From: a virus | Taxonomy: Duplodnaviria; Caudoviricetes | Virus record (IMG/VR): IMGVR_UViG_3300030117_006441 | Span: 1-54,287 of that record | Reading direction: 5' to 3' (one strand) | Length of the DNA: 54,287 nt | Shown: positions 1,120-44,239 of the stretch, in pieces | How positions within the stretch are numbered: position 1 is the stretch's first letter | Layout: each line of letters begins with the position of its first letter | Program-made: the position numbers and the translations under genes | Notes under the pieces: generated by a model | The model's database searches: none | The model's input: the letters and a program-made list of their open reading frames with translations, nothing else | What the model was told of the DNA's origin: nothing

Positions 1120-1121
1120 TT

Positions 1122-1772
1122 ATGGCAGAAGTTAAAGAGTATGGATATTATATAGAAGGCAATAAAATTGCTATTGTTCAAAAAGATATTTCATTTGATA
1201 ATGATATAAATTCAAGAAATTATGGTCCAGATTCAGATAGAATATTATGGAAATCTCCATTAGAAAGTATTACTGATGGTATTGAAATACAATATAGTTA
1301 TGTTCCTGAATATAGAATTAATGATGCAAGCGATACTCAGGCTATTACTGGATATGATGAAGATGGAACAGGTTTATTAAAATTAACAGGAAGTACATTA
1401 TCTACTGATTCTTCTATTACTCATATAGTAGTAGAAGGATTAGATAATTTTAATGGTTTACATAAAATAAAAACATTAAATGCAAGCTATTATATATTAG
1501 AAACAAAATATAGTGGTGCAGCTGTAACTAATGCTGGCACAATGTCAATAGATGTATCTGTTTTGCAAGATGAATCATTTGAAATAGATTTACCAACATA
1601 TTTACAAAAAGCATTAATTTATTACATAAAATCTAAATTCTTTGAGGATTTAGGTGATTTAGAAAAAAGAGAATATTTTGAAACTTTGTTTTTAGAACAA
1701 GTAGAAAGACATAATAATGCAAAAATCCCAGGATTTAGAGTTATGTCTGCAGGTTCTAATGCAATACGATAA
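1122..1772 (+). CDS. Virion protein resembling the C-terminal half of an adaptor/ring protein with an inserted beta domain
   Basis: IQYSYVP and EIDLPTYLQKALIYYI patterns. Confidence 0.5.
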   Translation: MAEVKEYGYYIEGNKIAIVQKDISFDNDINSRNYGPDSDRILWKSPLESITDGIEIQYSYVPEYRINDASDTQAITGYDEDGTGLLKLTGSTLSTDSSITHIVVEGLDNFNGLHKIKTLNASYYILETKYSGAAVTNAGTMSIDVSVLQDESFEIDLPTYLQKALIYYIKSKFFEDLGDLEKREYFETLFLEQVERHNNAKIPGFRVMSAGSNAIR

Positions 1773-3890: not shown

Positions 3891-4650
3891 TATTGTAAAA
3901 ACAGCAATAGTAACACCAGATAAACATTTTCCTATACATGACAAAAAAGCTATTAGTGTAGTTTGTCAAGCAATAGAAATTGTTAAACCAAATGCTTATA
4001 TTGATTTAGGTGATACTGGTGAATGGGAATATTTTAGTACTCACTACTGGAAAGGTAGAAATGCTAAACCTATGGAAGATTTAATTCCATTGCTAGATAA
4101 AGATGTAAAAGCAGTTAATAAAGGTATGGATATAATTGATAAATCTTTAGATAAAGTTAAATGTAAAGAAAGACATTTTGTTCAAGGTAATCATGAAGTA
4201 TGGTTAGATAAATTTGTTACTAGGTATCCTTACTTAGATCGTTACATGACTTATAATGCTTTAAAATTAAAAGAAAGAGGCTATGAGTTTCATCCTTATA
4301 ATAAAAAGGATAATTTAAAAATAGGTAAGTTAAATTTTACTCATGGAAAGTTTACTTCTAAATATCACTCATTTAAACATTTAGATGTTTATGGCGAAAG
4401 TATTATGTATGGTCATACACATGATTTACAAAGACATACTAAAACAAATAGAGGTGGTACAATTAGTGCTTGGAGTTTAGGATGTTTAAAAGATATAGAA
4501 GCTGATGAAGATTGGCTTGGTGGTAGATTGACTAATTGGAATCACGCATTTGCTATAGTTAATTTTTTTAAAAATGGCAATTTTAATGTAGAAGTTGTAG
4601 AAATTATTAACGGAAAGACAACTTTATGGGGTAATCTCATAAAGGGATAA
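3880..4650 (+). CDS. Calcineurin-like metallophosphoesterase
   Basis: PDKH, LGD, GNHE, THG and GHTH motifs. Confidence 0.85.
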   Translation: MMNDIVKTAIVTPDKHFPIHDKKAISVVCQAIEIVKPNAYIDLGDTGEWEYFSTHYWKGRNAKPMEDLIPLLDKDVKAVNKGMDIIDKSLDKVKCKERHFVQGNHEVWLDKFVTRYPYLDRYMTYNALKLKERGYEFHPYNKKDNLKIGKLNFTHGKFTSKYHSFKHLDVYGESIMYGHTHDLQRHTKTNRGGTISAWSLGCLKDIEADEDWLGGRLTNWNHAFAIVNFFKNGNFNVEVVEIINGKTTLWGNLIKG

Positions 4651-22800: not shown

Positions 22801-25800
22801 TTTGAAGCATTTTATAGTTTAGGTACACCATCACAAAACAACAATTTTTCATTAATGGGATGGCATAAACCTTCTGGTAAAAAAGCTACAGGAATATTAG
22901 TACACAAAATTAAATATGAAGGTTCAGATCCTGAAATTATTGAAATTGTTAATAATTATAATAGAGAAGTCTCAAAGCTTAAAGAAAATGGTAAAACTCC
23001 AAAACAAGATAATGTTGTTACCGAAGGAGATACTTATACACTAACAGATAAAAGCACATTTTATATTATACAATCTGTAATGCAAGATGCAAAGCTAGCA
23101 AGTAATACTACTGCTAAATATGAATTGCAAACATATTTTACAAAAACAGCAGAAAATGAATTAGGAAGAAACGCAGCTCTAACATTTTTAAATGCTTACC
23201 CTAACAAAGCTTCTAAGCTAACTAAATTGTTAATTAATAATGGTGCTTTAGAAATGAAAAAAGGTACAGGTAAACAAGAGGGTACTTATGAATATCATGT
23301 AAATCAAGAAAAGTGGAATAAATCTCAAACTCAAGAGCAACTAAGAAAGTTTATTGAAGACTATGGTATTAATATGGATAGTTTAGATATAAAAATGACA
23401 CATGCTCAAAAAGATGTTCAAGCTTATTTTGATGAAATGTATAGTCCAAATGATGCAAAATCTAATATGCCATTACCTGAATTTTTTCAAAAATATAAAA
23501 TTAAAGATACTGATGGCAACTTAATACCTCCTAATCCAGTAGAAATGAATGATTTCTTAAATTCAAAATTAAAAAACGAACTAGGTGAATATAGAGGTTC
23601 AAAAGCTATAAAAGAAATATTTGATAGCATGGAATATAGTAAAGGAGATGCTAATGAAGCTTATCAAAGATTAGTACAAATGGTTACTAAGCATATGGAT
23701 GGTAAAAACAAAAGAGTTTATTTTTTTAGTGAAGGAAGAATTCAAAGTAAAGATAGTAACCTTCATTCTTATGATAATCCATATTTCCAATATTTAGACA
23801 AAATAGGCTTAGAATATGCTTTAGTTGACGGTTTATCTGTAGACTGGAATTTTCAAGGTAATAAACCTAGATTAAAAGTTTTAGATGTATTCCAATCTGA
23901 ATCTACAATTATTAATAAATACGATAGAACATTAATTAGAAATAGAAAAGATATGTTCTTACAATTATTAGCTAAAAAAACAAACATGGATAAATTTCCG
24001 TCTGGTATGGAAATAATTGAAATGCCTGGTATGAAGCTATCATTAATTATTGGAAAAGATATTGAAGTTGTTAATAAAATTAAACAACAATTTAATGAAC
24101 TTTATAAAAGAAATATAGATAAAGTTAAAGGAACTCCTAATGAAGATTTATTAATGACAGTAAAAGAAAATTTAGAAAAATCTACAAAATTTAATGATGA
24201 AGTAAAACAAGCTTTTCGAGCATTAATAGCTGAAAATATGTCTACTGGTAAAGATAAATCTTTATTTGTAGATATGTTAAATATGACTGAAGGTGATTTG
24301 CAGAAATTTTTTGTAAATAGGCAAACACTATATAATACAATGAAATTTCAAAGACTTAATGAGCAAGTATTAGAAAGTTTAGTTGATTCTTATGATTATA
24401 TAGGTAAAAAAATTAAAGATTCAGATAACAGAAGTTTAGATCCAGAAGGATTTAAAGCATCAAAATATTACTCTAAAAATAAAAAATTTGGTATTGCAGT
24501 TGTAAATGATAGTGCTGATAATCTAGGTTATAGTTTAAAGGAATCATGGGCTAAGCACAATAAAGGTAAAGAATGGAATGACTATTACGGTGGAAGAGAA
24601 AATGAAAGTGGATTTGATAGTATGACATACATTTCTAAACAAATGGCAGATATGTTATCTTTTTATTATGGTACTCCAAACTCTAAAGTATTTAAGCCTG
24701 TTATTAGTTCTCAAGGAGAAGGGAATTTAATGTATGGTAAAACAGCATTTATGTATGATCCTAAATTAGATTCTTTTTTTAAATCTAATCCTGGACTAGA
24801 TATTTTAATGATGGGAAGTGCAGATAAATTAAAAGTTGCACAAGATAAAATATTAACTATTCCTAAAGCAGATATATACAATACAGGAGCAATAAATAAA
24901 AAGAATATTATTGATTTGCCTATAAAAAGTATAGGAATACAAAGTATACCAGATAAAAAAAGTTTATCTAAATTAAGCCTTAGTGTTATTAATCAAAGCA
25001 CAGATGTAGACTTACAGCAAAAAATATATAATGATTATATTGTTCCTGATTTAGCTAGAAATTTAGAAAACTTAAGAAAAATTGTAAACGATCCTTTGGT
25101 TGAGCGTGAAATGATTAGAGAAATTAAAGAGGGTATGCATAAAGGAACTTTTGAATCTCAAGAATTATTAGATGGAGCAAATTACCACTTAGGTGCTCAG
25201 TTAGAATGGTTAAAATTATCTCCTTATGCAAGCTTAGATGTTTTTGGTAATCATTCTAAATTAAATTTATTTAAAAGCAAGTATATAGATACTGCATTAT
25301 CTGTAATGTCTGAATATATTGACCCTAGAACAAAAAAATCTATTACATATGGTGGTAAAAGTGTAATTGGTCAAAGATTTGATACTGATTTACAAGGAAC
25401 TTTATTTAATAATAAAACAGGAAAAATAGAAAGATATGGAGAAATTTTACTTCCTGAAGGGTTAGGGTCTGGTAATATAACATTTGACGGTAGAAACTTT
25501 AATATTAAAGTAATAGACACTAAAACAAATAAGTTAACTAATGCTAAAAAAATATTTGAAGAAATAATGGAATCTAAAGGCATTAAAAAAGAATCTATTG
25601 AATCTGGTTGGAAACATATGAGTGAATCAGAAGCACCATTAGAATCATTATTTGAATTTTTTAATAATAATACATTAAAAGACACGAGATATGACATTGC
25701 AGTTTCTACATTACGTTATCCTAGAACAAGACCAAATGATTTACATTTTTTACGTTTAAGAGGTTTTGTTAAAGGCGGTGGTCAAAAAACAATTGTAAAT

Positions 25801-28542
25801 GCTTTAGACGTATATAATATATTTGAAGGTGATTACGATATTGATAAAGTAGATTTTTGGTGGGCAGGTAGTAATGCTTGGTACGAAAATATACAAAGAC
25901 AACAAAAAGTATTTGTACCTACAGCGGATGTATCTACTGCAAAAGAAACATTGCCTAATATTAATTTACTGTCTAGAAATGCAAAACAAAACAATTTACA
26001 ATGGGATATACTAACAGGTAATAAAAGAGCTATTGGAGATCTTAGAGGTGTAGTGCAAGCAACATCTGCTAAAGTTAAGTATATTGATAATTTAGCTGCT
26101 TCTGTCACAAATGCTCAAGGTCAAACTAGAAAAGTTATTTTAAGAAATCCAAATATTAAAGAAGGTGAAAATGGATATTGGGAAGTAAGAATGGATTGGA
26201 ATAATTCAGATTATCATTTATCTCAAGCTTTAAATGGACAAATATTATTAGACGCAACATCACCCGATCCTAGTATTTTAAGGAGTACTAGAAATTGGAT
26301 GGTAGACTTTTTATTTCCTAAATTTAGCGATAAAAATAGTGTTTCTAGAGAAGATTTTATTAATTCTGATGGTACATATAATACAAACAGATTAAGATTG
26401 TTTATGCAAGATAAAAAAACAGGAACTGGAGAAGCTAAAGATAAAAGAGTTAGATTATTTAAACGTATTGAATATGTAAGAGAAGGTAATGAAATTATTG
26501 AAAGAGAAGTAGATTTAGATTTACTTGATATAAAACATATACAAACATTAATGAATCAATACTCTAAAATATTAGAAGTCTTACCAGGAAGAAAAGTACA
26601 TACTAATGGTGAATCTGCAAAAGCTACATACGAACAAATGGTTGAAACTTCTGAACTATACTTTAATTCTTTAGATAGAAATACATTTAGCAATAATATA
26701 TTTAGAAAATTATGGTATTCTAAAGATTTTGACCCTAATAGTGGCGATGGATCGTTTAATTTTCAAAGTGGTGTAGGTAAACAAACATTAAAAGATTATT
26801 ATGATTTTGCATATAGATATAAAAATGTTAAAGGAGCTGATGGCAAATATTCTAAACAAACATTATATAATTATGCTCCATATGCTAAGCAAAGTCCTTT
26901 CCATCCAGGTGTTATTGAAAACATGCATCGTGTATCTACTGGAGAAAGAGGTGGAGTTGCAGAAAAATCTTTACACTTACTTAAATCTGATCCTTTAAAT
27001 AGATTATTAAGAGATACCAGAGTATCTACTAATGAATCATTATTACAAGAAAGAAAATTAGCAGAAGAACTATTAAATAATGACGATTTTAATATAAAAG
27101 AAATTGCTGATTTTATGCCATCTTTAATGGGTGAATTAAAACAAGATTATAATGCTTTAAAAAGATTAAAGTTTTTATCATATAGATTATCTCAAAGTAG
27201 GACTAAAAATAAAATACAAAAACAAAAAGCATTTGATGAACAAATTAAAGTATTAGAAGAAAAATTAAAACCACTAGTTAATAAAAAGTTTAAATTTAGT
27301 AAAAGTACAAAAGATATTCAATTGCCTAAAATACTAGACATTCAAGATGACGCTAAATATGTTGATGCTACTGTATCATATTATACTTTAAATTATGCAA
27401 GAAATATATTTGGGGCTATGAATGCTAAGCCTGGATACAGAAGAAGCGTAACAGAGGCTAGAAAATTAGTTGGAGAATCTTATGCAAATAAAAGCGAGCT
27501 ATATGGTGTAGGCTATGGAAGAAGATCTATATATACTACTGAAATGGATAGAGTATTATCTAATCGTGAAAGTATTGCAGATATAGAAACAAAAATACAT
27601 AACGCTATTACAAAAGGTGTGAATGAGCATGGTATAAGTTGGTTATGGGATTTTGCTATGCCTTCTCAAACTGATATACAAGGATATATAGGAGTTTATA
27701 AAAATAATGCTATCCCTATGTCAGTTAAAGCATCTGGTAATTATAAACGAATTGTAAGATGGATGTTAGATGCTCATTCTCGTAAACTTCCTGAAGGTTT
27801 TTATGCAGCTTATGGTGGTAAATGGCAAGCAGAACATTTTACAACAATATTAAAACATTTAGCAGAGACAGATTTTGTTTGGAGAAACTATTTTAGTGGT
27901 AAAAGTAAACATTTACCATCAGATGTATTTGAGTTAAATAAAATATTAACTTATGGTGCTCCTAAATTTGATTATAAACTAAATAACTTATTTGAAAATT
28001 ATACTGATATTAAATCTACTAAACATATAGACGAGTTTAATCCTTTTGGTATGGGAAAAAGATACGGTCAGCAAATAGAATTTTTTAGAGCATTATCTAA
28101 TATGAATGAAGAAATATCTGGAGAAAAATTTAATAAAGGAGCTGAAATATTATCTTATACTAATCAGTTAATGATGGAAAATGGGTTTTTAACACCGCAA
28201 AAAACATTAGCATTACTTGGTGATGCAGCTAAACAGCTTGGACCTATGCTAAATAAAGTATATCCTGCTTCTGTTGACGTTAGAACTGGTGAAGCTAAAC
28301 CTTTAAGACCTATATCATTAGTAAATAATCCAGTACATGTTCTTATTGGCGGCAATGGTGGTAATGGTAGCCCTATGTCTTTAAACTTTTATAAAGCTCA
28401 AAGTAAATATGTTAGGGATATGCAAAAAAGTATAATTAAACAAGCTGAAAACATTAAAAACACTGAAGAAAATGTGTTTCGTAAAGAGTATTTTGAAACA
28501 AGACAACATGAAGATGTTAGTAAAAAACCAGGAGATTGCTAA
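19879..28542 (+). CDS. Virion-packaged two-barrel DNA-dependent RNA polymerase (crAss-like), 2887 aa
   Basis: LRYPRT (25714-25722) about 39 codons before EGDYDIDK (DYDID at 25831-25845), matching the DFDID-type catalytic loop; giant size; ejection module. Confidence 0.75.
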   Translation: MSLERELQAFLRNEELRKTTMGKPARPQTLTQPEESSLLDSIGETAQEYVGNFIWSAFDEATFGALGQLEESPSLLDAALGDLAGDARQVLSGTRDFLTGDEKQTVINPETGEEMQMRMGPQSFGGKLASGAGTLAGFIAGGPKAALSVIGKGVTATAAKAAGKKTLQGAMKKAEKEAVDIIDNDLSGIYQKRLHSNLAQSVQKTIKPGRLNSPDNYRTFMQNSIKESIEQGVTSGQITRSVGDQLSVVYQKYLLDRPLTSVADYFTENMANKTIAYGIGSMIQEGAMFGILDAAREGLHVGLSAGEHKYDISHPLWGGIVGVAFGVGKFLPAAGKSSSDKVDFISAIKGKFAKHNNLLSKQTFAELKHSSQMLGNNLKPLGDLHRRSVNYQGKNYIFDLTQPEASARRILDGAGKAASEQNMAEITRLAFGKTANGIGNQLIKWATHNSWESVKENWPKMLWGGLAMNARSFYDMGIVGQEVPNDDLAVNFMLGAFLNRKGLARKTDMFPEQLTRLREGLHMLDVLPSKYAVTNPITGIPTLNPSISSNINPMASDKRLNSFVKLAEQKGLTTNNFDNIDTPITRKVSRGVVEFDVTAGVKSAKQSGEDLSLFFRFYDYLHGAANKKYVKNLDSISETTAKEINDALAKEFTNQVELQKYLKTTADNVGDRFETEIVKTGIDIVGLLEGKELRASSSDGNIGSIPELVLFSNKVVELAKQGKLGNEVKYFENIKPERQLDELSKIQEKASSVLEGLLELQRGTKRSENSFVKVRDMELVDQLSRLIKTKENVINTDLGFSETANNRFSFSRMDDMMGYMSNRILNKRINKFSELFDASNPKFNEIQDLLIDANILQSDKADIRVGLKMIESINQVKILGADGKIVKDTALVSKDKKFISSLLEILGTKNRYDTTKVGDVFISQEKLANLKNIFNTLGINVDSNLLSEFSNQIVQRVAYENFKLTNITPEQQALFEAFYSLGTPSQNNNFSLMGWHKPSGKKATGILVHKIKYEGSDPEIIEIVNNYNREVSKLKENGKTPKQDNVVTEGDTYTLTDKSTFYIIQSVMQDAKLASNTTAKYELQTYFTKTAENELGRNAALTFLNAYPNKASKLTKLLINNGALEMKKGTGKQEGTYEYHVNQEKWNKSQTQEQLRKFIEDYGINMDSLDIKMTHAQKDVQAYFDEMYSPNDAKSNMPLPEFFQKYKIKDTDGNLIPPNPVEMNDFLNSKLKNELGEYRGSKAIKEIFDSMEYSKGDANEAYQRLVQMVTKHMDGKNKRVYFFSEGRIQSKDSNLHSYDNPYFQYLDKIGLEYALVDGLSVDWNFQGNKPRLKVLDVFQSESTIINKYDRTLIRNRKDMFLQLLAKKTNMDKFPSGMEIIEMPGMKLSLIIGKDIEVVNKIKQQFNELYKRNIDKVKGTPNEDLLMTVKENLEKSTKFNDEVKQAFRALIAENMSTGKDKSLFVDMLNMTEGDLQKFFVNRQTLYNTMKFQRLNEQVLESLVDSYDYIGKKIKDSDNRSLDPEGFKASKYYSKNKKFGIAVVNDSADNLGYSLKESWAKHNKGKEWNDYYGGRENESGFDSMTYISKQMADMLSFYYGTPNSKVFKPVISSQGEGNLMYGKTAFMYDPKLDSFFKSNPGLDILMMGSADKLKVAQDKILTIPKADIYNTGAINKKNIIDLPIKSIGIQSIPDKKSLSKLSLSVINQSTDVDLQQKIYNDYIVPDLARNLENLRKIVNDPLVEREMIREIKEGMHKGTFESQELLDGANYHLGAQLEWLKLSPYASLDVFGNHSKLNLFKSKYIDTALSVMSEYIDPRTKKSITYGGKSVIGQRFDTDLQGTLFNNKTGKIERYGEILLPEGLGSGNITFDGRNFNIKVIDTKTNKLTNAKKIFEEIMESKGIKKESIESGWKHMSESEAPLESLFEFFNNNTLKDTRYDIAVSTLRYPRTRPNDLHFLRLRGFVKGGGQKTIVNALDVYNIFEGDYDIDKVDFWWAGSNAWYENIQRQQKVFVPTADVSTAKETLPNINLLSRNAKQNNLQWDILTGNKRAIGDLRGVVQATSAKVKYIDNLAASVTNAQGQTRKVILRNPNIKEGENGYWEVRMDWNNSDYHLSQALNGQILLDATSPDPSILRSTRNWMVDFLFPKFSDKNSVSREDFINSDGTYNTNRLRLFMQDKKTGTGEAKDKRVRLFKRIEYVREGNEIIEREVDLDLLDIKHIQTLMNQYSKILEVLPGRKVHTNGESAKATYEQMVETSELYFNSLDRNTFSNNIFRKLWYSKDFDPNSGDGSFNFQSGVGKQTLKDYYDFAYRYKNVKGADGKYSKQTLYNYAPYAKQSPFHPGVIENMHRVSTGERGGVAEKSLHLLKSDPLNRLLRDTRVSTNESLLQERKLAEELLNNDDFNIKEIADFMPSLMGELKQDYNALKRLKFLSYRLSQSRTKNKIQKQKAFDEQIKVLEEKLKPLVNKKFKFSKSTKDIQLPKILDIQDDAKYVDATVSYYTLNYARNIFGAMNAKPGYRRSVTEARKLVGESYANKSELYGVGYGRRSIYTTEMDRVLSNRESIADIETKIHNAITKGVNEHGISWLWDFAMPSQTDIQGYIGVYKNNAIPMSVKASGNYKRIVRWMLDAHSRKLPEGFYAAYGGKWQAEHFTTILKHLAETDFVWRNYFSGKSKHLPSDVFELNKILTYGAPKFDYKLNNLFENYTDIKSTKHIDEFNPFGMGKRYGQQIEFFRALSNMNEEISGEKFNKGAEILSYTNQLMMENGFLTPQKTLALLGDAAKQLGPMLNKVYPASVDVRTGEAKPLRPISLVNNPVHVLIGGNGGNGSPMSLNFYKAQSKYVRDMQKSIIKQAENIKNTEENVFRKEYFETRQHEDVSKKPGDC

Positions 28543-32389: not shown

Positions 32390-32556
32390 AGACCAAGTCC
32401 TTCAAGTCTTTTGTTAGCTTCTATTCTTTTATCTTCTGGCATACTTTCCCAGTATTCCATAAATATATCATAAGCATGTCTATATTTAACTAAATCAACA
32501 ATAGTTTCATCATTTGTTTTGTCAATATCATCGAATAATTGTTTTATATAACTCAT
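32386..32556 (-). CDS. Hypothetical protein (56 aa)
   Basis: Read manually; AAGGAG RBS; overlaps both neighbours. Confidence 0.55.
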   Translation of the reverse strand: MSYIKQLFDDIDKTNDETIVDLVKYRHAYDIFMEYWESMPEDKRIEANKRLEGLGL

Positions 32557-32714
32557 AATACAGGCTCCTTTCCTCTTAATTTACATTGATAATAGTATCT
32601 TTGACGTTTATGTATGTTCCAAGGTGTAAAGTGTGTATAATCTTTATCTTTTGGATTTCTACCTAAATGAAGATCCTCACGTGTAATAAAATGTATGTAT
32701 TCAGTAACTCTCAT
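32553..32714 (-). CDS. Hypothetical protein (53 aa)
   Basis: Read manually; ATGA overlaps at both ends. Confidence 0.45.
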   Translation of the reverse strand: MRVTEYIHFITREDLHLGRNPKDKDYTHFTPWNIHKRQRYYYQCKLRGKEPVL

Positions 32715-32854
32715 GACCACCATTTTCTCCATTCTATTTGACGCTTTTTCTTATCTTCTTCTATTTTTTTAGTTTTTGTAGTATTTCTCTTTTTGTATTT
32801 AACTCGACCTACACTAGTCATTTTAGGAAAAACACTTTTCTTTTTTTCTGTCAT
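32711..32854 (-). CDS. Small basic protein (47 aa)
   Basis: Read manually; AGGAGG RBS. Confidence 0.55.
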   Translation of the reverse strand: MTEKKKSVFPKMTSVGRVKYKKRNTTKTKKIEEDKKKRQIEWRKWWS

Positions 32855-32862
32855 ATTACCTC

Positions 32863-33726
32863 CTAGAATATGTATCTTATTTCTTGCCATGGCAATACAA
32901 AGTTATGTAATTCTTTAAACTTTGATATACAACGCCACTTATAATTATATTTATATCTAATATTAGTATTCCCATATTGAGATACTTTAGTTTCTTGTAT
33001 GTTAGGCTTCCATAATAACTCTTCTTGTTCTATTTTATTGTTATCTAAATTATATTGATGCATTTGTTTATTATGTGTTAAAAATATTACTTCACATTTT
33101 ACTTTATCTTTAATACTGTTATCAACATACTTATCAACAGTTTCAAATAAATCTATATACATATCCCTAGAATCTTTATGCACTATAACTGGAGAATAAT
33201 TTAAATGAACATCATATCCTGCTTCATAAAAATCATTAACTGCTTTAATTCTATCAATAATTTTAGATGTACCAGGTTCTAATTTATCAGCTAACTTTTG
33301 AGGCATAATACTAAACCTAATTCGTATTTTTCTATCTGCATCATAATCTAATAAATCTTTATTAACATATTTAGTAGCAGCAGTGCCCATAGCTTTTTCA
33401 TGATACTTAAAGTAATTAAATATAAGTCTCCAATCATGATACCTAGAATGTAATATAAAATCTTCATTACAACTAAAATCATAACTATAATATTCTTCAT
33501 GTGTTTGATTAGGCTTTTTAGGCCATTTAAGATCATTGCTATGGTTTTCTATAGCTATAAGTATATCTTCAGGATTTTGAGCTACTGTAAGCCCATTTGG
33601 TACATGTCTACGCATATAACAATACGCACACTTGTATAAACAACCAAAACCAAAGCTAGGAGTAATAAAATCACTACTACGTCCTGATTCTCTGATTGTC
33701 ATTGCCTTTCTATTTACATATTTCAT
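32863..33726 (-). CDS. Spore photoproduct lyase family radical SAM protein
   Basis: SSDFITPSFGFGCLYKCAYCYMRRH (CxxxCxxC), ATKYVN, IRIRFS, LEPGT, NYSPVI. Confidence 0.8.
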   Translation of the reverse strand: MKYVNRKAMTIRESGRSSDFITPSFGFGCLYKCAYCYMRRHVPNGLTVAQNPEDILIAIENHSNDLKWPKKPNQTHEEYYSYDFSCNEDFILHSRYHDWRLIFNYFKYHEKAMGTAATKYVNKDLLDYDADRKIRIRFSIMPQKLADKLEPGTSKIIDRIKAVNDFYEAGYDVHLNYSPVIVHKDSRDMYIDLFETVDKYVDNSIKDKVKCEVIFLTHNKQMHQYNLDNNKIEQEELLWKPNIQETKVSQYGNTNIRYKYNYKWRCISKFKELHNFVLPWQEIRYIF

Positions 33727-37401: not shown

Positions 37402-37430
37402 AATTTACATACTTTATTTCTATTTTCCAA
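37402..37430 (-). promoter_or_regulatory. Possible sigma70-like promoter for the recombination/replication module
   Basis: TTGGAA-N17-TAAATT on the - strand upstream of erf. Confidence 0.35.
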
Positions 37431-38082
37431 GTATCATTGTAGGAAAGTTAAATGAGAATTTTTTATCATAAGGCTGGTTAGTTATTAACTTCCTAACAGC
37501 ATTACAAATAAAACTTCCACTCATATTACTACAATAACTTGTTGCCTTCATTGTACATGGTTCAGGATCAGAATCACCATCAGGATACCATGTTTTAAGG
37601 TAATTTTTTAATGTTGGCTTTGGTAAGACATATTGTTGGTAATGTTCAGCTCCCATACGACCATCAATAATTGCAAAAGGTTTAATTCTGCTTTTAGATA
37701 TATGAGTTACTGCATCTAATCTAGATTTCATACTATCAAAACCTAGTATAATTATATCATTATGCTGACTCATAGGTATATATTCATTGTCTTCTGGGAA
37801 TTTACCAAAATATTTATCGACTGTTTTCTTGTTTCCAGTGATATTTATTATATGATGATAGAGACAATCAACCTTATTTTTACCGACATCTTTTATGTTA
37901 TATTGACTTACACCTATATTTGGTTGCTCAACAACATCTCCATCGTATAAAGCAAAGTTTTCTGCTCCCATTCTTGCCAACTGCATGGCTGCAGAGCTAC
38001 CAATAGCCCCGCAACCAAGTATATGGTAAGAATAGTCATTCATATTACTAACAATATCACTGAATCTACTATTTTTGTCCAT
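37420..38082 (-). CDS. ThiF/MoeB/E1-like activating enzyme
   Basis: ILGCGAIGS, YDGDVVEQPNI, VGKNKV, GFDSMKSR, IDGRMG; candidate catalytic Cys in EPCT. Confidence 0.9.
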   Translation of the reverse strand: MDKNSRFSDIVSNMNDYSYHILGCGAIGSSAAMQLARMGAENFALYDGDVVEQPNIGVSQYNIKDVGKNKVDCLYHHIINITGNKKTVDKYFGKFPEDNEYIPMSQHNDIIILGFDSMKSRLDAVTHISKSRIKPFAIIDGRMGAEHYQQYVLPKPTLKNYLKTWYPDGDSDPEPCTMKATSYCSNMSGSFICNAVRKLITNQPYDKKFSFNFPTMILGK

Positions 38083-39025
38083 GTATCCCTCCTGTTAAAT
38101 AACTTTCATTCCAGCTTTGTTCATCAGCATAATCCATATAAGGATCTAACTCTTCATAACCAGGATCACAAATGATTAAATCCCATGCATGTATTTCTAA
38201 TAAGCTATCAAAATCACATTTTTCTATTAGTTCTACAGACAATGGCATTTTAGCATTTTCTAATCTTCTGTTTACATCCTTTATTTTATTAGCATATTTT
38301 TCATAGTTAAATTCACCAGCTATAAATGAAGAATTTATACTATCTACTTTTTCTAATAATTGAATCCATGCTGTTCTTATTATATTTCTTTCACTATGCT
38401 CATTAAGATTTGCATTGAATAAAGTAGTTTGATCTGTTCCAGGAATAACAGTTCCACTTGTTACTCCCTTATTAGTCCATTTACTCCAACTACTACCAGA
38501 ATTATACCAATTAGTAGCTGGTTTAGTACAGAATTTTTCTACTTCATCATTAATTTTCTTAGGTATCTTAAATTCTTTATTATCATTTAAGATATTAAGT
38601 TCAACATCTTTATGCATTACAAAAGGTTTCCATACTGATACTCTACATTTATATTCTTCTTTTACATTAACTACTAAAGCAAAACTTAAGTCGCCATCTT
38701 CATATTCATCTATAGTATTTGTATCAGTACCACTCCAGAAAGCATCCATTTTAGCATGAGAATGCCACCAACAAAAGCGAATGTTCTTTTTCTTATACTT
38801 CATAGCCATTTTACTGTAATATGCTGCTAATTCAGTTTTATCTAATTCGCATAATGCTGGAGATACTTCTTGTTTCATTATTACTGGATCTGTAATTTGC
38901 CAGTCACCATCCTCATCTTGAATAGTTACTGCCATACCACCTATTTCTGTGCTCCATTTATTTGAAGCACATCTGGCATAATTAATTATCTTATCCCAAT
39001 CCTTCTTTTCTATAAATACTTCCAT
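38069..39025 (-). CDS. JAB/MPN+ (JAMM) metallo-isopeptidase
   Basis: EIGG plus exact H-x-H-x7-S-x2-D motif (HSHAKMDAFWSGTD). Confidence 0.88.
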   Translation of the reverse strand: MEVFIEKKDWDKIINYARCASNKWSTEIGGMAVTIQDEDGDWQITDPVIMKQEVSPALCELDKTELAAYYSKMAMKYKKKNIRFCWWHSHAKMDAFWSGTDTNTIDEYEDGDLSFALVVNVKEEYKCRVSVWKPFVMHKDVELNILNDNKEFKIPKKINDEVEKFCTKPATNWYNSGSSWSKWTNKGVTSGTVIPGTDQTTLFNANLNEHSERNIIRTAWIQLLEKVDSINSSFIAGEFNYEKYANKIKDVNRRLENAKMPLSVELIEKCDFDSLLEIHAWDLIICDPGYEELDPYMDYADEQSWNESYLTGGIHGQK

Positions 39026-40329
39026 TATTGATTCCTCCTATTATTTACTAGATTTAATGTTAATGCTTCCAGAGCTTCTCTTTCAGCGTTTGTTGTTGTA
39101 GGTGAAACTTCTACAGGTTCATCTTTATATATCACTACAGCAGCTTTATACGATGGACATTCATCTTTTACAGTACAATATGCAGAACAATAAGATTCTT
39201 CTGTAACATTTATCCCATCTTCAGCCTGATCTTGAACAATATGACCATATCCACAATTAGAAGGTGTCATTTTAGCATTTATATTGTAATATTCATCATT
39301 GCCTTCTAAGAAATTAGGCTGTCCAAAGTAAGATCTATTAATTTGATTAAGTGGGCCTGTTTGAGTGTCATAATGTGTCATCAATCTATTTATAAATACT
39401 TTTAATGATATAAAATCTAAAGCTCTTACGCAAGAATGAAATTCTTGATTCATAGCTCCTACACATACATATCTAAAAGCATCGTTAAATATATTATTAT
39501 AATTATATGAATATCCATTACCACTTATAAATGGATGTTGCAATCCTTGATAACTACCATACCATCTGCCACCTATAGCATAAAACCAGTTTTTAGTACT
39601 GTTACCATTGGCTACTCTAATACTATTTGGTATTCTATTTACATCAAGTTTTGCAGATATTAGACAATTAATTATTTTTACTAATGATATTCTTATAACT
39701 ATGTAGCCTTCTCCAGGTAAATTAATTTCTGCTATATTATCTGGATTTTCGTAATGCCTATAGTTAATTTTTACATCATTATAATTATATATTATATCTA
39801 ATAAATAATTAGTAACAACTCCTTCAGTTTCTATTGGACTTATTCTTAAACCAAAAGCACCGTCAGACATTTCATATTGCCTATACAAATGAGCTTTTAT
39901 TACTTCCCATGACTCAATTACATCATCAGTATTATCTTGCATTATGAGCCCTTGTTGCCTAAAGCTACTTAATATGTCTTCAATATTTGCTAATTCAGTC
40001 GACATATTTCTTAATCTCCAATTAGCATTATCTTTAACTCTTTGTACAACTTTTCCTAATGAATTTGCTTTCTTATGCATTTCACCTTGATGCCATAATA
40101 TATCTTTTATAGTATCATAAGCTCCTGGTTTCCAATAAAACTTTTTAGTAATACCAAGAGGTTTAGTAGGTGCATGTAAATTGTAAGACCTTACTACATG
40201 ATTTTCACCTTGTACGTATCTAGTATTAAATTCATCAATTAATTCTAATACTTCAGCTTGAGGTCCTAATTGAATATTTTCTATTAAGCTTGTCAAGTCT
40301 GGATTTAATTCAAATAAGTTTGTTTGCAT
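39025..40329 (-). CDS. Putative E2/UBC-like conjugating enzyme with long N-terminal extension
   Basis: HPFIS (H265)…YVCVG (C289) resembles the prokaryotic E2 HP-x-h…hC-h-G motif; lies between the Ubl and JAB genes. Confidence 0.55.
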   Translation of the reverse strand: MQTNLFELNPDLTSLIENIQLGPQAEVLELIDEFNTRYVQGENHVVRSYNLHAPTKPLGITKKFYWKPGAYDTIKDILWHQGEMHKKANSLGKVVQRVKDNANWRLRNMSTELANIEDILSSFRQQGLIMQDNTDDVIESWEVIKAHLYRQYEMSDGAFGLRISPIETEGVVTNYLLDIIYNYNDVKINYRHYENPDNIAEINLPGEGYIVIRISLVKIINCLISAKLDVNRIPNSIRVANGNSTKNWFYAIGGRWYGSYQGLQHPFISGNGYSYNYNNIFNDAFRYVCVGAMNQEFHSCVRALDFISLKVFINRLMTHYDTQTGPLNQINRSYFGQPNFLEGNDEYYNINAKMTPSNCGYGHIVQDQAEDGINVTEESYCSAYCTVKDECPSYKAAVVIYKDEPVEVSPTTTNAEREALEALTLNLVNNRRNQ

Positions 40330-40354
40330 TGTATCTCTCCTATATTGTAAGAAA

Positions 40355-40395
40355 GGGGACAGTAAGTGGATTGTAAGTGTGAGTAGACTATCCCC
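40355..40395 (-). terminator. Terminator-like stem-loop between the Ubl and E2-like genes
   Basis: GGGGATAGT/ACTGTCCCC stem (one U-G), large loop, followed by TTTCTT. Confidence 0.45.
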
Positions 40396-40416
40396 CTCCT
40401 CTGTGTTTACACTAAA

Positions 40417-40629
40417 CTAGCAACCGCCAGATTTATTATTCTGAACAGCTGCCACTACGGAACCATCTGTAAGTTCATGAGTATCCGCCACATTAGTACC
40501 ATTTACTGCAATATCAGCACCAGGGCTAATATCTAATTCAGCTCTCAATTGAGCTACAGTTAATGAAGTGACTTCTTTATCTACAAATCCACCACCCGCT
40601 AACCATCTTATCGTTCTAGTTGTTGCCAT
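40417..40629 (-). CDS. Ubiquitin-like (ThiS/MoaD-type beta-grasp) protein ending KSGG-C
   Basis: 70 aa; TVAQLRAEL, IAVNG, HELTDGSVV, C-terminal GG plus one residue; AAGGAGG RBS. Confidence 0.85.
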   Translation of the reverse strand: MATTRTIRWLAGGGFVDKEVTSLTVAQLRAELDISPGADIAVNGTNVADTHELTDGSVVAAVQNNKSGGC

Positions 40630-41628: not shown

Positions 41629-41662
41629 TATTAATCTCCTTAGTTAGTTTATTGTAAATTTA

Positions 41663-41777
41663 TTAGAGAACTACGAACATACGAGTAAACGTATATCCTA
41701 CATACCGCTCCAACCTGGTGATCACCGCGTTTTTCAAGTTGGCGTTAATCATTAGATACATATGATTAGTTCTCTAA
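41663..41777 (-). ncRNA. Candidate structured ncRNA (multi-branch)
   Basis: Perfect 11-bp closing stem TTAGAGAACTA/TAGTTCTCTAA enclosing three hairpins; no ORF. Confidence 0.5.
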
Positions 41778-41784
41778 ATCTTTG

Positions 41785-41905
41785 GGGCGAACCATCTGTT
41801 ATTTTCGAGGTGTATTAAGTGATCAGGCATGTCGTCCCCCGACCATATCGATATATTGTCAACATTGCTCACCAGCATGTATCGAAAATATCTAGGTCAT
41901 CACCC
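41785..41905 (-). ncRNA. Candidate structured ncRNA
   Basis: GGGTGA/TCGCCC outer stem (U-G on the - strand); inner 9-bp TATTTTCGA/TCGAAAATA. Confidence 0.5.
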
Positions 41906-41918
41906 TTGCACGTTGAGC

Positions 41919-42551
41919 TTAAGTCTTACAATTATCTTCAAATTCAGATAAATCCTTATCACCACCTTCAATTTTACCAGTAAGAGCATCTCTGTATATA
42001 TGATTATTATTATTATCAACAGTTTTACCATATTTTACATGAGTTGTAGCAAAATCAAGATTTATATTTCTAGAAGACATAGATTCTATCTTATCAAATG
42101 CTGACATCATAATATCTCTATATGATTCACATTTTTCACAACCATCTGGTCCATGTTCTCCTGCATGCCATAGAATATCCATATGTGACATTATATTTTC
42201 ATATCTTTTATCACTATTACTATATTTCTTAACTTCTATCACATTTTTATTTTTAAGTTGTGCGATTTCGTCCAACTTCATTAAATATTTTTTGTAATCA
42301 TCTCTTGATGTATCTACAGCTATACTGATTTGATGCTTAAGATCTTCTATCATTTGATTTTTAATCTTTAATTTAGCTTTTAAAGTATACAAATCTTGAC
42401 CAAGTGATAGTATTTCTTCTTCTTTTTCTATCATTTCATCATCTTTTTGCATATCAGCTTCCATTGCATCTCTCATCCACTTATCTTTTAATACTTTATA
42501 AGCTTCTGATATATCTTTATCATCTTTCTTATCTTTGTATTGATCTTCCAT
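41919..42551 (-). CDS. Coiled-coil hypothetical early protein
   Basis: ORF track; GGGAG RBS; H…H…CxxC. Confidence 0.65.
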   Translation of the reverse strand: MEDQYKDKKDDKDISEAYKVLKDKWMRDAMEADMQKDDEMIEKEEEILSLGQDLYTLKAKLKIKNQMIEDLKHQISIAVDTSRDDYKKYLMKLDEIAQLKNKNVIEVKKYSNSDKRYENIMSHMDILWHAGEHGPDGCEKCESYRDIMMSAFDKIESMSSRNINLDFATTHVKYGKTVDNNNNHIYRDALTGKIEGGDKDLSEFEDNCKT

Positions 42552-42741
42552 TTTATTCTCCCTTAATTAGTTTAGTGTGTATTAACAAATATTATCTATA
42601 ATTTGTTTCTATAAGCTCATTTCTAAGATATTCCGCAAATTTCTTAGTATCTTCAAGATCTTTTTCTAACTTCTTTATTTTTTTCTTTAATCTTACTAGT
42701 ACTATTTTATCGTGCATTGTATTCCTCCTTAATTATTTTAA

Positions 42742-43321
42742 TATATGTAGGCATACATCTTCCAGAAATGACGTTAGGTTTGTTATCTATATCAACAGGT
42801 GCCCCCGTATCAATATTTTAGATCAACTTGTGGTTGAAGACAAGCGGCGACCAAGCTACTAAATGCATCCCTACACATAATTTTATAGTATCATGATGGA
42901 TCTAAGCTCATACTCTTGTCCATCTCTACATTATGAGAGAAACCCAATTAGGGCCTTGTAGTGATACTAATTCTTTAGTATGGTAGCATAGATATAAATA
43001 TCCACGGGTTCATGATTCCCATTATACACCACCATACTGGTCGCGAGTAGAGCAATAGCTCATCGAAAAGTATAGGATATAAATATTGTACAGTCTCCAT
43101 TTAAGCAGCAAGCTGCCCCTAATTGACGAAGTTAGGTAGTAAGAGTCACTTTTAGACCACTACGCAAGCGTATTATAATATCTATATCCTAATTATAAAA
43201 TTATAAGTATAAGGCCTCGGTATCATTCATCTAACTATCTATCTGTTACAAAGCCGCTAAGCTACGGGACTGTGCACTAAGTCCTAGATTGCTAGGGAGT
43301 TTCAACTGTACCTTATACTTA
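42742..43321 (-). ncRNA. Array of structured RNA-like domains 3' of the tRNA (42742-42879, 42886-42969, 42977-43038, 43073-43191, 43204-43321)
   Basis: Each unit is closed by its own 8-11 bp inverted repeat, mostly with short A/T linkers; no ORF of 60 aa or more. Confidence 0.55.
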
Positions 43322-43327
43322 ATGTTG

Positions 43328-43400
43328 TAGCGGAGGTTGGAATCGAACCAACAAACTTGTGGTTATGAGCCACACTAGGCTACCAAGCCTGCTCTCCGCA
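43328..43400 (-). tRNA. tRNA-Met(CAT), initiator-like, CCA not encoded
   Basis: TGCGGAG/CTCCGCT acceptor stem; TGTGG-CTCATAA-CCACA anticodon arm; GTTGG-TTCGATT-CCAAC T arm. Confidence 0.9.
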
Positions 43401-43408
43401 ATTGATTG

Positions 43409-43583
43409 AAACTTACTTACATCAACGAATGCATTACCCGTTCTTTTATAGATATAATTAGAATAGTTGGGTTGATTCTATTACAGATGTTGTTTAGTGT
43501 AAGTTTATACTATATATAAAGGAAGCTACTGCACATACGGTATATATTATGACACATATGGAGTGCATATACAGTAGCATTCC
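43409..43583 (-). ncRNA. Two further structured domains 5' of the tRNA (43409-43506, 43521-43583)
   Basis: AAACTTAC/GTAAGTTT and GGAAGCTACTG/CAGTAGCATTCC closing stems. Confidence 0.45.
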
Positions 43584-43609
43584 CGTGAAACATTCCAGAA
43601 AACTACAGA

Positions 43610-43876
43610 TTATTCGTCTGTAGTCTTCTCGAAAGGTGATTCATACTCTTCATCTTCTTTCAAAGTTAGGTCAATATTAACACCAAACAATGTAGCTTCT
43701 TCTATAACATCTTTAATAGCAGCATCACGTTGTCTTTTAAGATCCATTTGACTTGCTATAGGCTGTCCTAGTATTCTATTCCAACCTCTTTTAGCAGGTG
43801 CATTCTCAATCTTAGGTGCAAACCTTTTAAATATTCCTTTTACTCTATTACGATATTCCATCTTTTCTTCTGTCAT
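43610..43876 (-). CDS. First early gene, hypothetical protein
   Basis: ORF track; AAGGAG RBS. Confidence 0.65.
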   Translation of the reverse strand: MTEEKMEYRNRVKGIFKRFAPKIENAPAKRGWNRILGQPIASQMDLKRQRDAAIKDVIEEATLFGVNIDLTLKEDEEYESPFEKTTDE

Positions 43877-43974
43877 TTTACTATCTCCTTTTATTTAAAT
43901 AACTATAAAATATTTATATATATTTATATTAAAAAAATCTATATGATTTTTAACTAAATTTCCTTTTTGGAAAT

Positions 43975-43990
43975 CCGCCCGATAGGGCGG
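43975..43990. promoter_or_regulatory. GC-rich hairpin in the divergent control region
   Basis: CCGCCC-GATA-GGGCGG in AT-rich surroundings. Confidence 0.5.
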
Positions 43991-44205
43991 TTATACATAA
44001 AAAAGACCACACGATAAAATGCTACAATTTTGAAACCTTTTCTCTTCGTGAAGTAATATAATTTTTTACCATCTCCCTTCGACAAAATCTAGGATTGCTT
44101 TCCCAAAACCGACCAATTAGTCTGCAAAATTCGTAAGTCATTGTATTTCAGCAACTTACAGCTCAAAAATAATTCTTGATTTTTAAAATAAAAGTATATA
44201 ATATA

Positions 44206-44214
44206 TGATATAAT
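44206..44214 (+). promoter_or_regulatory. Extended -10 promoter for the packaging/head operon
   Basis: TGATATAAT upstream of the GGAGG RBS and ATG 44240. Confidence 0.5.
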
Positions 44215-44239
44215 AAATTTATGAAAGGAGGTTATAGTT

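Follow-up and report, generated by a model that had tools for sequence, protein, structure and literature searches.

Candidate small RNA genes in an uncultured marine podovirus: structured modules around a tRNA-Met gene where the leftward arm begins

In an uncultured marine podovirus, a gene-free stretch that opens the leftward arm carries six different stem-closed modules arranged around a single tRNA-Met gene, and looks like little-studied RNA cargo. The window analysed (54,287 nt; positions 1 to 54,287 of IMG/VR record IMGVR_UViG_3300030117_006441) is a near-complete genome, in which the leftward (minus-strand) arm codes for replication and recombination genes. Between a promoter-like motif and the first ribosome-binding site (RBS) of this arm lie 774 nt without a gene, occupied in order by U6, tRNA-Met, U5, U4, U3, U2 and U1. 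The tRNA and all of the units are on one strand, the minus strand, which is the sense of the arm. The explanation favoured here, with modest confidence and on the basis of sequence comparison, is that each module is a small RNA gene of its own, which would share a transcript with the tRNA and be set free by processing.

ORFs of at least 60 aa are absent from both strands over 42602-43609, in agreement with the initial annotation, which had described the region as ORF-free, and the short frames of 27-41 aa inside the array straddle unit boundaries. The first ORF of the arm, read from the ORF list and the sequence, encodes 41 aa (42592-42717, minus strand), with the RBS AAGGAGG at 42724-42730 and an ATG at 42717-42715; it is the first RBS-preceded ORF 3' of the motif and marks the end of the leader. 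At the other end, an 88-aa ORF (43610-43876) lies upstream of both U7 and the motif. A possible extra module (41663-41777, minus strand, 11-bp closing stem) is found between the early ORFs; the fold of 41629-41918 around it has a z of -1.86, and 3' of the module a core-like 16-mer with two mismatches (41647-41662) is followed by an RBS. This module overlaps a 32-aa frame. RNA contigs from three RNA runs cover only 42078-42665, corresponding to a 210-aa ORF, and such contigs cannot resolve transcript ends. No host call is made, because TerL relatives occur in genome bins labelled Poseidoniales, Dehalococcoidia and Methanosarcinales and these labels are inconsistent.

Relatives were compared at 151 loci, named by L-numbers, and lineage-wide scans covered 154 sequences or sources (1.3 Mb); from IMG/VR, 80 of at least 599 relatives were taken into the comparison. 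A blastn search with 42500-43900 found no match in 50,697 phage records, and the flanking small proteins, used as anchors in IMG/VR, recovered no relatives.

The promoter-like motif (26-28 nt, 43518->43491, minus strand) stands at the head of the leftward arm and is single-copy in the window. Its core on the minus strand, TAAACTTA[CT]AC[TC]AAAC, occurs once each and in the same orientation in 29 of the 151 relatives' loci, as well as in the window; among relatives the core is invariant and the upstream halves are variable. An RBS and a start codon follow 10-48 nt 3' of the motif in 16 of the 28 evaluable loci, all 16 being without a leader, and the motif therefore behaves as a leftward-arm promoter. 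Judged by its position, it is the putative promoter of the leftward arm, which would be transcribed from this single site. The motif could instead be a 5'-UTR element, since weak core-like copies precede two later RBSs.

Between the 88-aa ORF and the motif lies U7 (43520-43584, minus strand), a strong hairpin with a fold z of -5.21 on the minus and -1.54 on the plus strand. In relatives, too, hairpins can be read from the sequence immediately ahead of the motif. A consensus terminator scan did not call U7; it is probably a terminator-like hairpin of the upstream 88-aa gene, outside the array transcript. The "about seven" structured domains proposed initially are thus found as seven stem-closed units (U1-U7), each with its own inverted repeat, of which U7, upstream of the motif and probably a terminator, does not belong to the cluster.

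The RNA fold of 42718-43609 has a z of -3.39 on the minus strand, none of 20 shuffles being as good, as compared with -1.08 and 3 of 20 on the plus strand; minus-strand values for the single units range from -1.29 to -5.21. When the whole genome was scanned with adjustment for composition, 712 minus-strand blocks of 900 nt were scored, and the six lowest all begin at 42751-43276; no other 0.9-kb block on that strand is as structured as the array. A control ORF-poor stretch of the same arm (32390-32862) gives a z of -0.16. Across U1, U3 and U4 together, pairing is retained at all 15 variable predicted pairs, the inner hairpins co-varying too; these covariation tests had two or three sequences each, and against the window-only fold neither U3 nor U6 reaches significance. 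The comparison across relatives that had been proposed as a check thus yields compensatory changes in U1, U3, U4 and U6, which indicate that the folds are maintained and the units under selection as structures. Identification of the units as structured elements of minus-strand sense is thereby supported. Their closing stems, first put at 8-11 bp, come to 8-18 bp, and the linkers are short and A/U-rich, as had been described.

U1 (42742-42879, 138 nt, minus strand) is bounded by repeat I3, with 17-nt arms that are 82% complementary, and folds into an 18-bp closing stem, rich in G-U pairs as the initial annotation had stated, with four inner hairpins. Its GGCA loop (42800-42803), previously taken for a GNRA tetraloop, is of the GNNA type, because the third position is a pyrimidine. 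A homologue of 84.5% identity is present in L002 at a different place in the genome, about 1.7 kb from the motif. RNAalifold gives 41 pairs for U1, with one compensatory change, five one-sided changes and none broken. In a permutation test, six changed pairs are kept and two broken on the minus strand (P=0.002), as against three kept and seven broken on the plus strand (P=0.65).

U4 (43073-43191, 119 nt, minus strand) is multi-branched, with a closing stem of 15-18 bp (repeat I1, 18 nt, 89%) and the two G(CUUG)C hairpins noticed at the outset. Its homologue in L118 (81-83% identity) lies directly behind the motif and on its own constitutes the leader of that genome, and the CUUG loops are retained in this copy while their stems co-vary. 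RNAalifold predicts 28 pairs, with four compensatory and two one-sided changes and none broken, and two further compensatory pairs in the outer stem can be read by eye from the alignment; scoring against the window-only fold is distorted by the wrong placement that MAFFT gives to an indel in the closing stem. The fold of U4 is better on the plus strand (z -3.49) than on the minus strand (z -2.71), and its covariation is strand-symmetric. A covariance model of U4, run over the 154 sources (1.3 Mb), matched the window and L118 and no new member.

U3 (42975-43066, minus strand) consists of a 5' hairpin (43044-43065) and a stem-closed three-way junction (42977-43038); its closing repeat is 8 nt, exact, and extends to 13-14 bp in the fold. 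L082 (93%) and L002 (88%) have homologues, which adjoin the tRNA-Met of those genomes. RNAalifold gives 30 pairs, one of them with a compensatory and two with one-sided changes, and none broken; in L002 a longer hairpin substitutes for the third hairpin, and the closing stem is kept. U6 (43401-43506, minus strand; repeat I21, 8 nt, 100%) is the first module of the leader, and the CUUACA of the motif takes part in its closing stem. The single-sequence fold z of U6 is only -1.29 on the minus strand. Homologues lie directly behind the motif in L002/L082 and in L007, and RNAalifold with three sequences yields 19 pairs, two of them compensatory and one broken in one sequence.

U2 (42886-42969, 84 nt, minus strand) is a three-way junction with an 8-bp closing stem (repeat I14, 100%) and a fold z of -3.05, none of 200 shuffles being as good. 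Its homologue in L005/L098 is 93.5% identical, as compared with 74-83% for the flanking genes. The copies differ by six substitutions, two of which fall in pairs, and both of these keep pairing on the minus strand only; so few changes do not reach significance (P=0.18). A DNA contig of run X2 fuses 42972 directly to 43491, with U2 kept and U3-U6 absent. U5 (43204-43321, 118 nt, minus strand) has a perfect 11-bp closing stem (repeat I5) and is the least supported unit: its fold shows no strand preference (z -1.80 minus, -1.95 plus), and nhmmer found no match to it in the 151 loci.

The tRNA-Met (anticodon CAT; 43327-43400, minus strand), called by ARAGORN and by Rfam RF00005, bears out the single tRNA reported initially. 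It scores 36.4 bits as compared with a gathering score of 29 for RF00005, and 43327-43400 is the only segment to qualify for that family; its first acceptor pair is mismatched and CCA is not encoded. All 12 tRNAs in the 154 lineage sequences are tRNA-Met(CAT), on the same strand as in the window. The initial annotation had named Rfam, ARAGORN and ribozyme searches as the way to identify the units, and the tRNA-Met alone was matched. With cmscan of 42500-44100 and 42700-43326 at E up to 10, no Rfam family matches any unit. At the same limit there is no match to the classes of self-cleaving ribozyme that Rfam covers (hammerhead, twister, HDV-like and others), nor to tRNA models, tried on U1-U7 for tRNA-like or decayed tRNA sequences. 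Rfam models of GOLLD, ROOL and other large ornate RNAs match neither the window nor the relatives' loci, and relaxed ARAGORN with introns permitted made only calls overlapping the real tRNA.

Several other identities were rejected. With the threshold at 80%, ARAGORN calls a permuted tmRNA across 42792-43421; this call incorporates the real tRNA and its tag is atypical, and Rfam finds no tmRNA outside the tRNA. As to a CsrA sponge, 11 GGA motifs are present as compared with 9.5 expected, and only two of them are unpaired. Matches between units are of only 8-11 nt and form no tandem array, and a CRISPR-DR match at E 8.8 is noise, in keeping with the original remark that the units are neither repeats nor CRISPR. 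A MITE-like element was also discarded, every unit being single-copy in the genome with three or fewer relatives among the 151 loci. The 2887-aa protein has no Pfam, PHROG or PDB sequence match; it has a DYDID motif and an Atlas match of 0.76 to a viral RdRP-domain cluster, which is below the counting level, and its possible identity as a virion RNAP is only a lead.

Units U1-U4 and U6 are each found in one to three relatives among the 151 loci, often at other positions: U1 in L002, U2 in L005/L098, U3 in L082/L002, U4 in L118 and U6 in L002/L082/L007. Their conservation ends sharply at the closing stems, U2 sits behind an ORF in L005, and L002 and L082 differ by module-sized indels. The modules are conserved as well as TerL or better (U2 93.5% vs 82.6%; U4 80.9% vs 78.2%). 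It appears from these comparisons that the array modules are exchanged among relatives as cassettes. Profiles of U1-U4 run with nhmmer --max gave no new members, the best being a weak U3-like match in L015 (E 0.06), and IMG/VR pattern scans with unit cores returned nothing for U4 and, for U1 and U2, only the one contig already known in each case. ORF-free leaders of 99-991 nt, mostly unrelated in sequence, are present in 12 of the 28 loci. Other RNA is carried in this region too. Six relatives have at the locus an RNA of 420-510 nt (about 480 nt), termed LR-1, which has no counterpart in the window and in which 42 of 117 pairs are compensatory, as compared with 1-5 in slid controls. A manA-like RNA (RF01745) is present in the early region of L087 (44.6 bits vs a gathering score of 55.2, E 7e-10, outer junction stem unmatched), and manA RNA is absent from the window.

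The alternative that survives best, although an unlikely one, is that the array is a cis-acting structured 5' leader of the leftward operon, whose modules are not separate products. Such a leader might protect the new 5' end left after tRNA excision against RNase E or RNase J, control when translation occurs, or modify RNA polymerase so that it resists termination. The last is what HK022 put and lambda nut RNAs do just behind early promoters. The leader position of the array fits a cis-acting role: the entire array lies between the promoter-like motif and the first RBS, in three genomes the end of U6 is paired with the 5' end of the presumed transcript, and U4 alone suffices as a leader in L118. 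However, 16 of 28 relatives are without any leader and the existing leaders mostly share no sequence, whereas a conserved cis signal would be expected to hold its place and sequence; elsewhere the modules sit between or after ORFs, as do U1 in L002 and U2 in L005.

It is improbable that the array forms a single large ornate RNA, with the tRNA inside it or next to it, that would be functionally analogous to GOLLD and ROOL, which are phage-borne, occur near tRNAs and form RNA cages. About 580 nt of dense structure do lie 3' of the tRNA-Met in this marine phage, the global fold closes the region into a single domain set, and relatives have a true large RNA, LR-1, at the locus. Against this, neither GOLLD, ROOL nor any other Rfam model is matched at E up to 10, relatives have the units one at a time or in a different order, one relative keeping U2 without U3-U6, and LR-1 itself is missing from the window.

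Elements acting at the DNA level, whether MITE-like or recombination cassettes, a replication origin, or ssDNA hairpin signals for a virion RNAP as in N4, are very improbable. An inverted repeat and A/T-rich junctions bound every unit, units are gained and lost as cassettes, and U4 and U5 fold equally well on both strands. The DYDID motif of the 2887-aa protein also resembles the DFDxD of crAss-like virion RNAPs, one of which, phi14:2 gp66, prefers single-stranded templates in vitro according to the accessible part of the preprint (bioRxiv 10.1101/2020.03.07.982082). Yet the units are single-copy and mutually unrelated, unlike MITEs, and their inner hairpins co-vary, not the termini alone. The proposal in the initial annotation of ssDNA structures read by the virion RNAP is not supported, since changes in U1 keep pairing only in the sense strand, which is the non-template strand, and since the units vary while the motif is conserved. 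No hairpin conserved across relatives was seen (for small hairpins, in a non-systematic comparison); the element conserved lineage-wide is the linear 26-nt motif, and the early transcripts of phi14:2, as far as the accessible part of the same preprint reports (bioRxiv 10.1101/2020.03.07.982082), have no common upstream motif. That the region is a gene desert with degenerate tRNA genes or chance structure, and possibly conceals micropeptide genes, is hardly credible: the locus recurrently has a tRNA, frames of 27-41 aa are present and U1 shares an 11-nt identity with the tRNA anticodon arm, but that identity is lost in the L002 copy of U1, relaxed ARAGORN and tRNA models (E up to 10) yield nothing credible, the folds show compensatory changes, the ORF-poor control has no excess structure, and the short frames span module borders that are not syntenic in relatives.

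Under the favoured reading of independent small RNA genes, the array and the tRNA would be transcribed as a single precursor, from which the tRNA would be excised by RNase P and 3' tRNA-processing enzymes, and an RNase E-type endonuclease would cleave the short, A/U-rich single-stranded linkers. The products would be RNAs of 85-140 nt with both ends locked in a long stem, and are therefore proposed to be exonuclease-resistant. Speculatively, they may act in trans as accessory early products, for example by binding proteins or as decoys in host takeover or counter-defence, and may be the RNA counterpart of the variable small early proteins that fill the region in relatives. Processing sites, like the stability and trans action of the products, are purely inferential. 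Of the polycistronic small-RNA cluster first suggested, the minus-strand structured units, the selection on them and one putative transcription unit with the tRNA behind the motif stand, and U7 falls outside.

A wider but doubtful proposal is that this lineage of marine podoviruses, abundant and uncultured, has in its promoter-proximal 1-2 kb a dedicated "RNA cargo bay", a fast-shuffling pan-genome of unrelated RNA genes under structural constraint (U1-U6, LR-1, the manA-like RNA and tRNA-Met). Delivered at the start of infection, these would form an RNA-based arsenal for takeover or counter-defence, a counterpart of protein anti-defence islands, and the rarity and turnover of the RNAs would then reflect an arms race. 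Accessory early regions of phages are usually read as collections of small proteins, and here the slot holds structured RNAs without a known family in at least 12 of 28 related genomes. If expressed as stable RNAs, the modules of 84-138 nt and the RNA of about 480 nt with very strong covariation would provide a natural library of compact folds and a test case for RNA-based host manipulation by marine phages. In addition, the motif is a well-defined single-copy phage promoter candidate for a group without a cultured member.

Structured signals at or just behind early promoters are known from N4 virion-RNAP hairpin promoters, HK022 put and lambda nut. An N4-type promoter hairpin is small, on the template strand and conserved among early promoters. 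These signals are short, conserved and fixed in place, whereas the window has multi-branched units of 84-138 nt, no two alike, which most relatives do without. The manA RNA (RF01745), found almost only in marine metagenomes and cyanophages, is proposed in the accessible text to be a cis-regulatory riboswitch candidate in 5' UTRs (PMC2864571), unlike the modules here, which stand in a row without intervening genes. GOLLD and ROOL are RNAs of phages and prophages near tRNA islands, with tRNAs sometimes within a linker, and one marine example is downstream of a Met-tRNA, according to the portion of the source available (PMC12286853); the 3' region of GOLLD is universally conserved, whereas the relatives of the window share single modules only. 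A literature search found no description of the array or of LR-1, and some of the modules may already be listed in the supplementary tables of a catalogue that takes 8,495 candidate structured RNAs from IMG/VR (PMC10690425).

In the crAss-like Cellulophaga phage phi14:2, early ORF-free intergenic RNAs are transcribed above most genes and are stable, abundant and of unknown function, as stated in the accessible part of the preprint (bioRxiv 10.1101/2020.03.07.982082). Both phages are marine, with a giant virion protein carrying a D-F/Y-D-x-D motif and with long ORF-free regions. Unlike the window, phi14:2 belongs to the Crassvirales, has a genome of 100 kb and gives no blastn match with the array region 42500-43900; one of its regions scores as a tmRNA, whereas the window has none, and no tRNA is predicted in its first 9 kb. 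In T4, two small RNAs lie among eight tRNAs. These RNAs, RNAC and RNAD, are situated beside tRNA genes, transcribed from the tRNA region, reported to be late and of unknown roles, in the parts of the sources available (PMC3014915, PMC9697503). Shuffling of cassettes among relatives, as seen here, is not described for T4 in those parts (PMC3014915, PMC9697503). The units in the window share a strand and a putative transcription unit with the tRNA and, like RNAC and RNAD, would be small RNAs next to a tRNA; unlike in T4, there are six different modules around one tRNA, and their place is the head of the replication arm.

The window is the entire IMG/VR virus record, of 54,287 bases, with a completeness estimated at 99% and a G+C content of ~30%. 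It encodes an N4-like large terminase (TerL), ~24% identical to those of cultured phages, together with a P22-like portal and an SU10-like capsid protein, and no DNA-level match of the window to any cultured relative was found. Sequencing runs containing parts of the window are labelled marine, seawater or estuary metagenome. Three relatives' loci (L156, L157 and L158), whose TerL is 59-65% identical, lie in genome bins labelled Poseidoniales, Dehalococcoidia and Methanosarcinales; composition-based binning of viral contigs is the probable cause, and the labels therefore give no host signal. Minus-strand genes at 31.3-43.9 kb include those for a DnaB-like helicase-primase, an Erf annealing protein and a RusA-like resolvase, and the array is located at the 5' end of this arm. 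Also in this replication arm are a radical-SAM protein resembling spore photoproduct lyase (32863-33726, minus strand; PF20903, E 2e-22) and a ubiquitin-like conjugation set (37420-40629, minus strand), comprising a ThiS-like 70-aa protein with the C-terminus GGC (40417-40629), a ThiF/E1-like protein (37420-38082) and a weak JAB-domain match (38069-39025), with a 434-aa protein without assignment inside the set.

The initial annotation described an ORF-free row of about seven structured units packed around a single tRNA. No ORF of at least 60 aa is present in 42602-43609, and one tRNA-Met(CAT) lies at 43327-43400 on the minus strand. The units are, as proposed, not repeats: each is single-copy and they are mutually unrelated. 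Each has its own closing inverted repeat, and the linkers are short and A/U-rich; the stems measure 8-18 bp rather than the 8-11 bp first given, and a GGCA loop assigned to the GNRA type does not belong to that class. The units have no Rfam match at E values up to 10, with the tRNA included in or excluded from the range, no further tRNA-like gene was detected by ARAGORN, relaxed settings included, and GGA motifs are not enriched in them. An identical 11-nt stretch occurs in U1 (42825-42835) and in the anticodon-arm/variable region of the tRNA-Met (43354-43364), preceded in U1 by a D-arm-like stretch; it is lost in the copy of U1 in the relative's locus L002.

Relatives' loci were collected by TerL (80, from at least 599 matches) and by small terminase (71), giving 151. 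A 26-nt sequence running from 43518 to 43491 on the minus strand is present once in the window, and its invariant core occurs once, in constant orientation, in 29 of these loci. Among 28 loci with enough downstream sequence, the window included, a ribosome-binding site (RBS) and start codon follow 10-48 nt past the core in 16, and the other 12 have 99-991 nt that are gene-free. In the relatives' sequences, hairpins with U-rich tails tend to lie before the motif. The simplest reading is that the motif serves the leftward arm as promoter and start region; its length and layout are, we presume, reminiscent of promoters used by phage-encoded single-subunit polymerases. Weak copies of the core lie on the minus strand at 42570-42578 and 41647-41662, immediately ahead of the RBSs of 210-aa and 62-aa ORFs, and an exact 9-mer of the core has three occurrences in the window where 0.53 would be expected. 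These copies may be internal promoters or a common 5'-UTR element. A single place in L002 and L082 aligns with both RBS contexts, 42540-42578 and 42702-42740.

The first RBS-preceded ORF of the window (41 aa, ATG at 42717) begins 774 nt past the motif, and this interval is filled exactly by U6 (43401-43506), tRNA-Met, U5 (43204-43321), U4 (43073-43191), U3 (42975-43066), U2 (42886-42969) and U1 (42742-42879). U7 (43520-43584) lies upstream of the motif, past the stop of an 88-aa ORF, and is best read as the terminator-like hairpin of that gene. The 774-nt interval might instead serve as a cis-acting leader of the arm, a reading that we consider unlikely; it would account for the position ahead of the first ORF, and has to be set against the behaviour of the units in relatives.

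Five units recur, each in just one to three relatives among the 151 loci: U1 in L002 (84.5% identity), U2 in L005 and L098 (93.5%), U3 in L082 (93%) and L002 (88%), U4 in L118 (81-83%) and U6 in L002, L082 and L007. No homologue of U5 was found in these loci. Similarity ends at the closing stems, and positions vary among genomes: U4 adjoins the motif in L118, U1 is ~1.7 kb away from it in L002, U3 is directly beside the tRNA in L002, and in a DNA contig of sequencing run X2 U2 is joined to the motif and U3-U6 are absent. The identity of the units equals or exceeds that of TerL in the same genome pairs, and the units are separate elements under selection. Neither IMG/VR scans with three unit cores nor a U4 covariance model run on 154 sources gave additional members; the modules are therefore rare. 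That the array forms a single large RNA of the GOLLD/ROOL kind is improbable; such an RNA would suit the tRNA-associated setting, and the units are inherited separately.

As RNA, the array region has a fold z of -3.39 on the minus strand versus -1.08 on the plus strand. Minus-strand values are -2.08 for U1, -3.05 for U2, -2.77 for U3, -2.71 for U4, -1.80 for U5, -1.29 for U6 and -5.21 for U7; U4 folds better on the plus strand. In a whole-genome scan of composition-corrected MFE, the lowest six of 712 minus-strand 900-nt blocks all begin at 42751-43276, and the array's plus-strand block ranks 105th. Another ORF-poor stretch of the same arm has no excess structure (z -0.16). The divergent intergenic region separating the two arms (43877-44239) is strongly structured (minus-strand z -3.50), and a hairpin at 43977-43990 falls within a 46-nt stretch 98% identical in L026. 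Elements acting at the DNA level, among them the single-stranded DNA structures first suggested, would also use inverted repeats, and are slightly less probable than a single large RNA.

Base-pair changes preserve the unit folds; the structural case is weakest in that each test has two or three sequences. U4 has 28 pairs with four compensatory changes, two one-side changes and none broken, and two additional compensatory pairs were seen by eye in its outer stem. The corresponding counts are one, five and none for the 41 pairs of U1, and one, two and none for the 30 of U3, whose third hairpin varies in length; U6 has 19 pairs, with two compensatory and one broken in one sequence. Judged against the window-only fold, substitutions in U1 avoid minus-strand pairs (P=0.002), whereas no such avoidance is seen for the plus strand (P=0.65), and no other unit reached significance, substitutions being too few or misaligned. 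Decay products or chance structure can be given very little credence.

For the most part, the long leaders found in other relatives have unrelated sequences. Six relatives have an RNA without ORFs, 420-510 nt long and here named LR-1, on the minus strand of the early region (L002:6905-7391, L007:5598-6080, L082:2738-3246, L005:5063-5481, L085:2902-3406 and L003:5235-5651). LR-1 matches no Rfam family, does not occur in the window, and shows very strong covariation. With three sequences, 98.3% of its cells pair, and both sides have changed in 42 of 117 pairs, versus one to five in slid alignments and with the observed value reached by none of 500 shuffles; with six, compensatory changes affect 55 of the 141 predicted pairs, and some hairpin domains are optional. 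The early region of L087 carries a manA-like RNA (992-1186, minus strand; RF01745, E 7e-10), which at 44.6 bits falls below the gathering score of 55.2 and whose outer junction stem has no match. All 12 tRNAs in 154 lineage sequences are tRNA-Met(CAT) on the array's strand. Small ORFs and RNA genes therefore make up a mosaic in the promoter-proximal part of the arm.

What is established for the array of RNA modules is its strand and structure, the modular way in which it is inherited, and its place behind the motif. A single precursor transcript would span array and tRNA, from which the tRNA would be cut by RNase P and 3'-end enzymes; an RNase E-type enzyme could cleave the A/U linkers, and the products would be stable because the closing stem holds both ends. 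Since the modules are rare, turn over and sit among variable early genes, our guess is that they act in trans, in host takeover or counter-defence. No T7-like RNA polymerase domain was detected in the window ORFs scanned. A 2887-aa ORF at 19879-28542 (plus strand) has one DYDID motif, at residue 1985, no match among Pfam, PHROG or PDB sequences, and a weak hit, at 0.76, to a viral RdRP-domain cluster in the Atlas. The motif resembles the DFDxD motif that crAss-like virion polymerases are reported to carry (bioRxiv 10.1101/2020.03.07.982082). As a lead, the protein may be a virion RNA polymerase of the crAss-like two-barrel kind, here in an N4-like/SU10-like podovirus.

In phage phi14:2 of Cellulophaga (L155, NC_021806), the ORF-free early region 4031-4502 (plus strand) is scored as a tmRNA by both Rfam (46 bits, with 47 as gathering score) and ARAGORN (tag peptide GSSVQKLAMVA); the record annotates no RNA gene there, and the region may be one of the phage's reported abundant early 'long non-coding RNAs'. 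The nearest precedents of the array are T4 RNAC and RNAD, which come from the T4 tRNA region and whose roles are described as not established in PMC3014915 and PMC9697503; the early intergenic RNAs of phi14:2, abundant and persistent according to bioRxiv 10.1101/2020.03.07.982082; and GOLLD and ROOL, placed near phage tRNA islands in PMC12286853. Each shares its setting with the array but not its family, and what is new here is that different modules stand in a row, are exchanged like cassettes and have a fixed place behind a lineage-wide motif.
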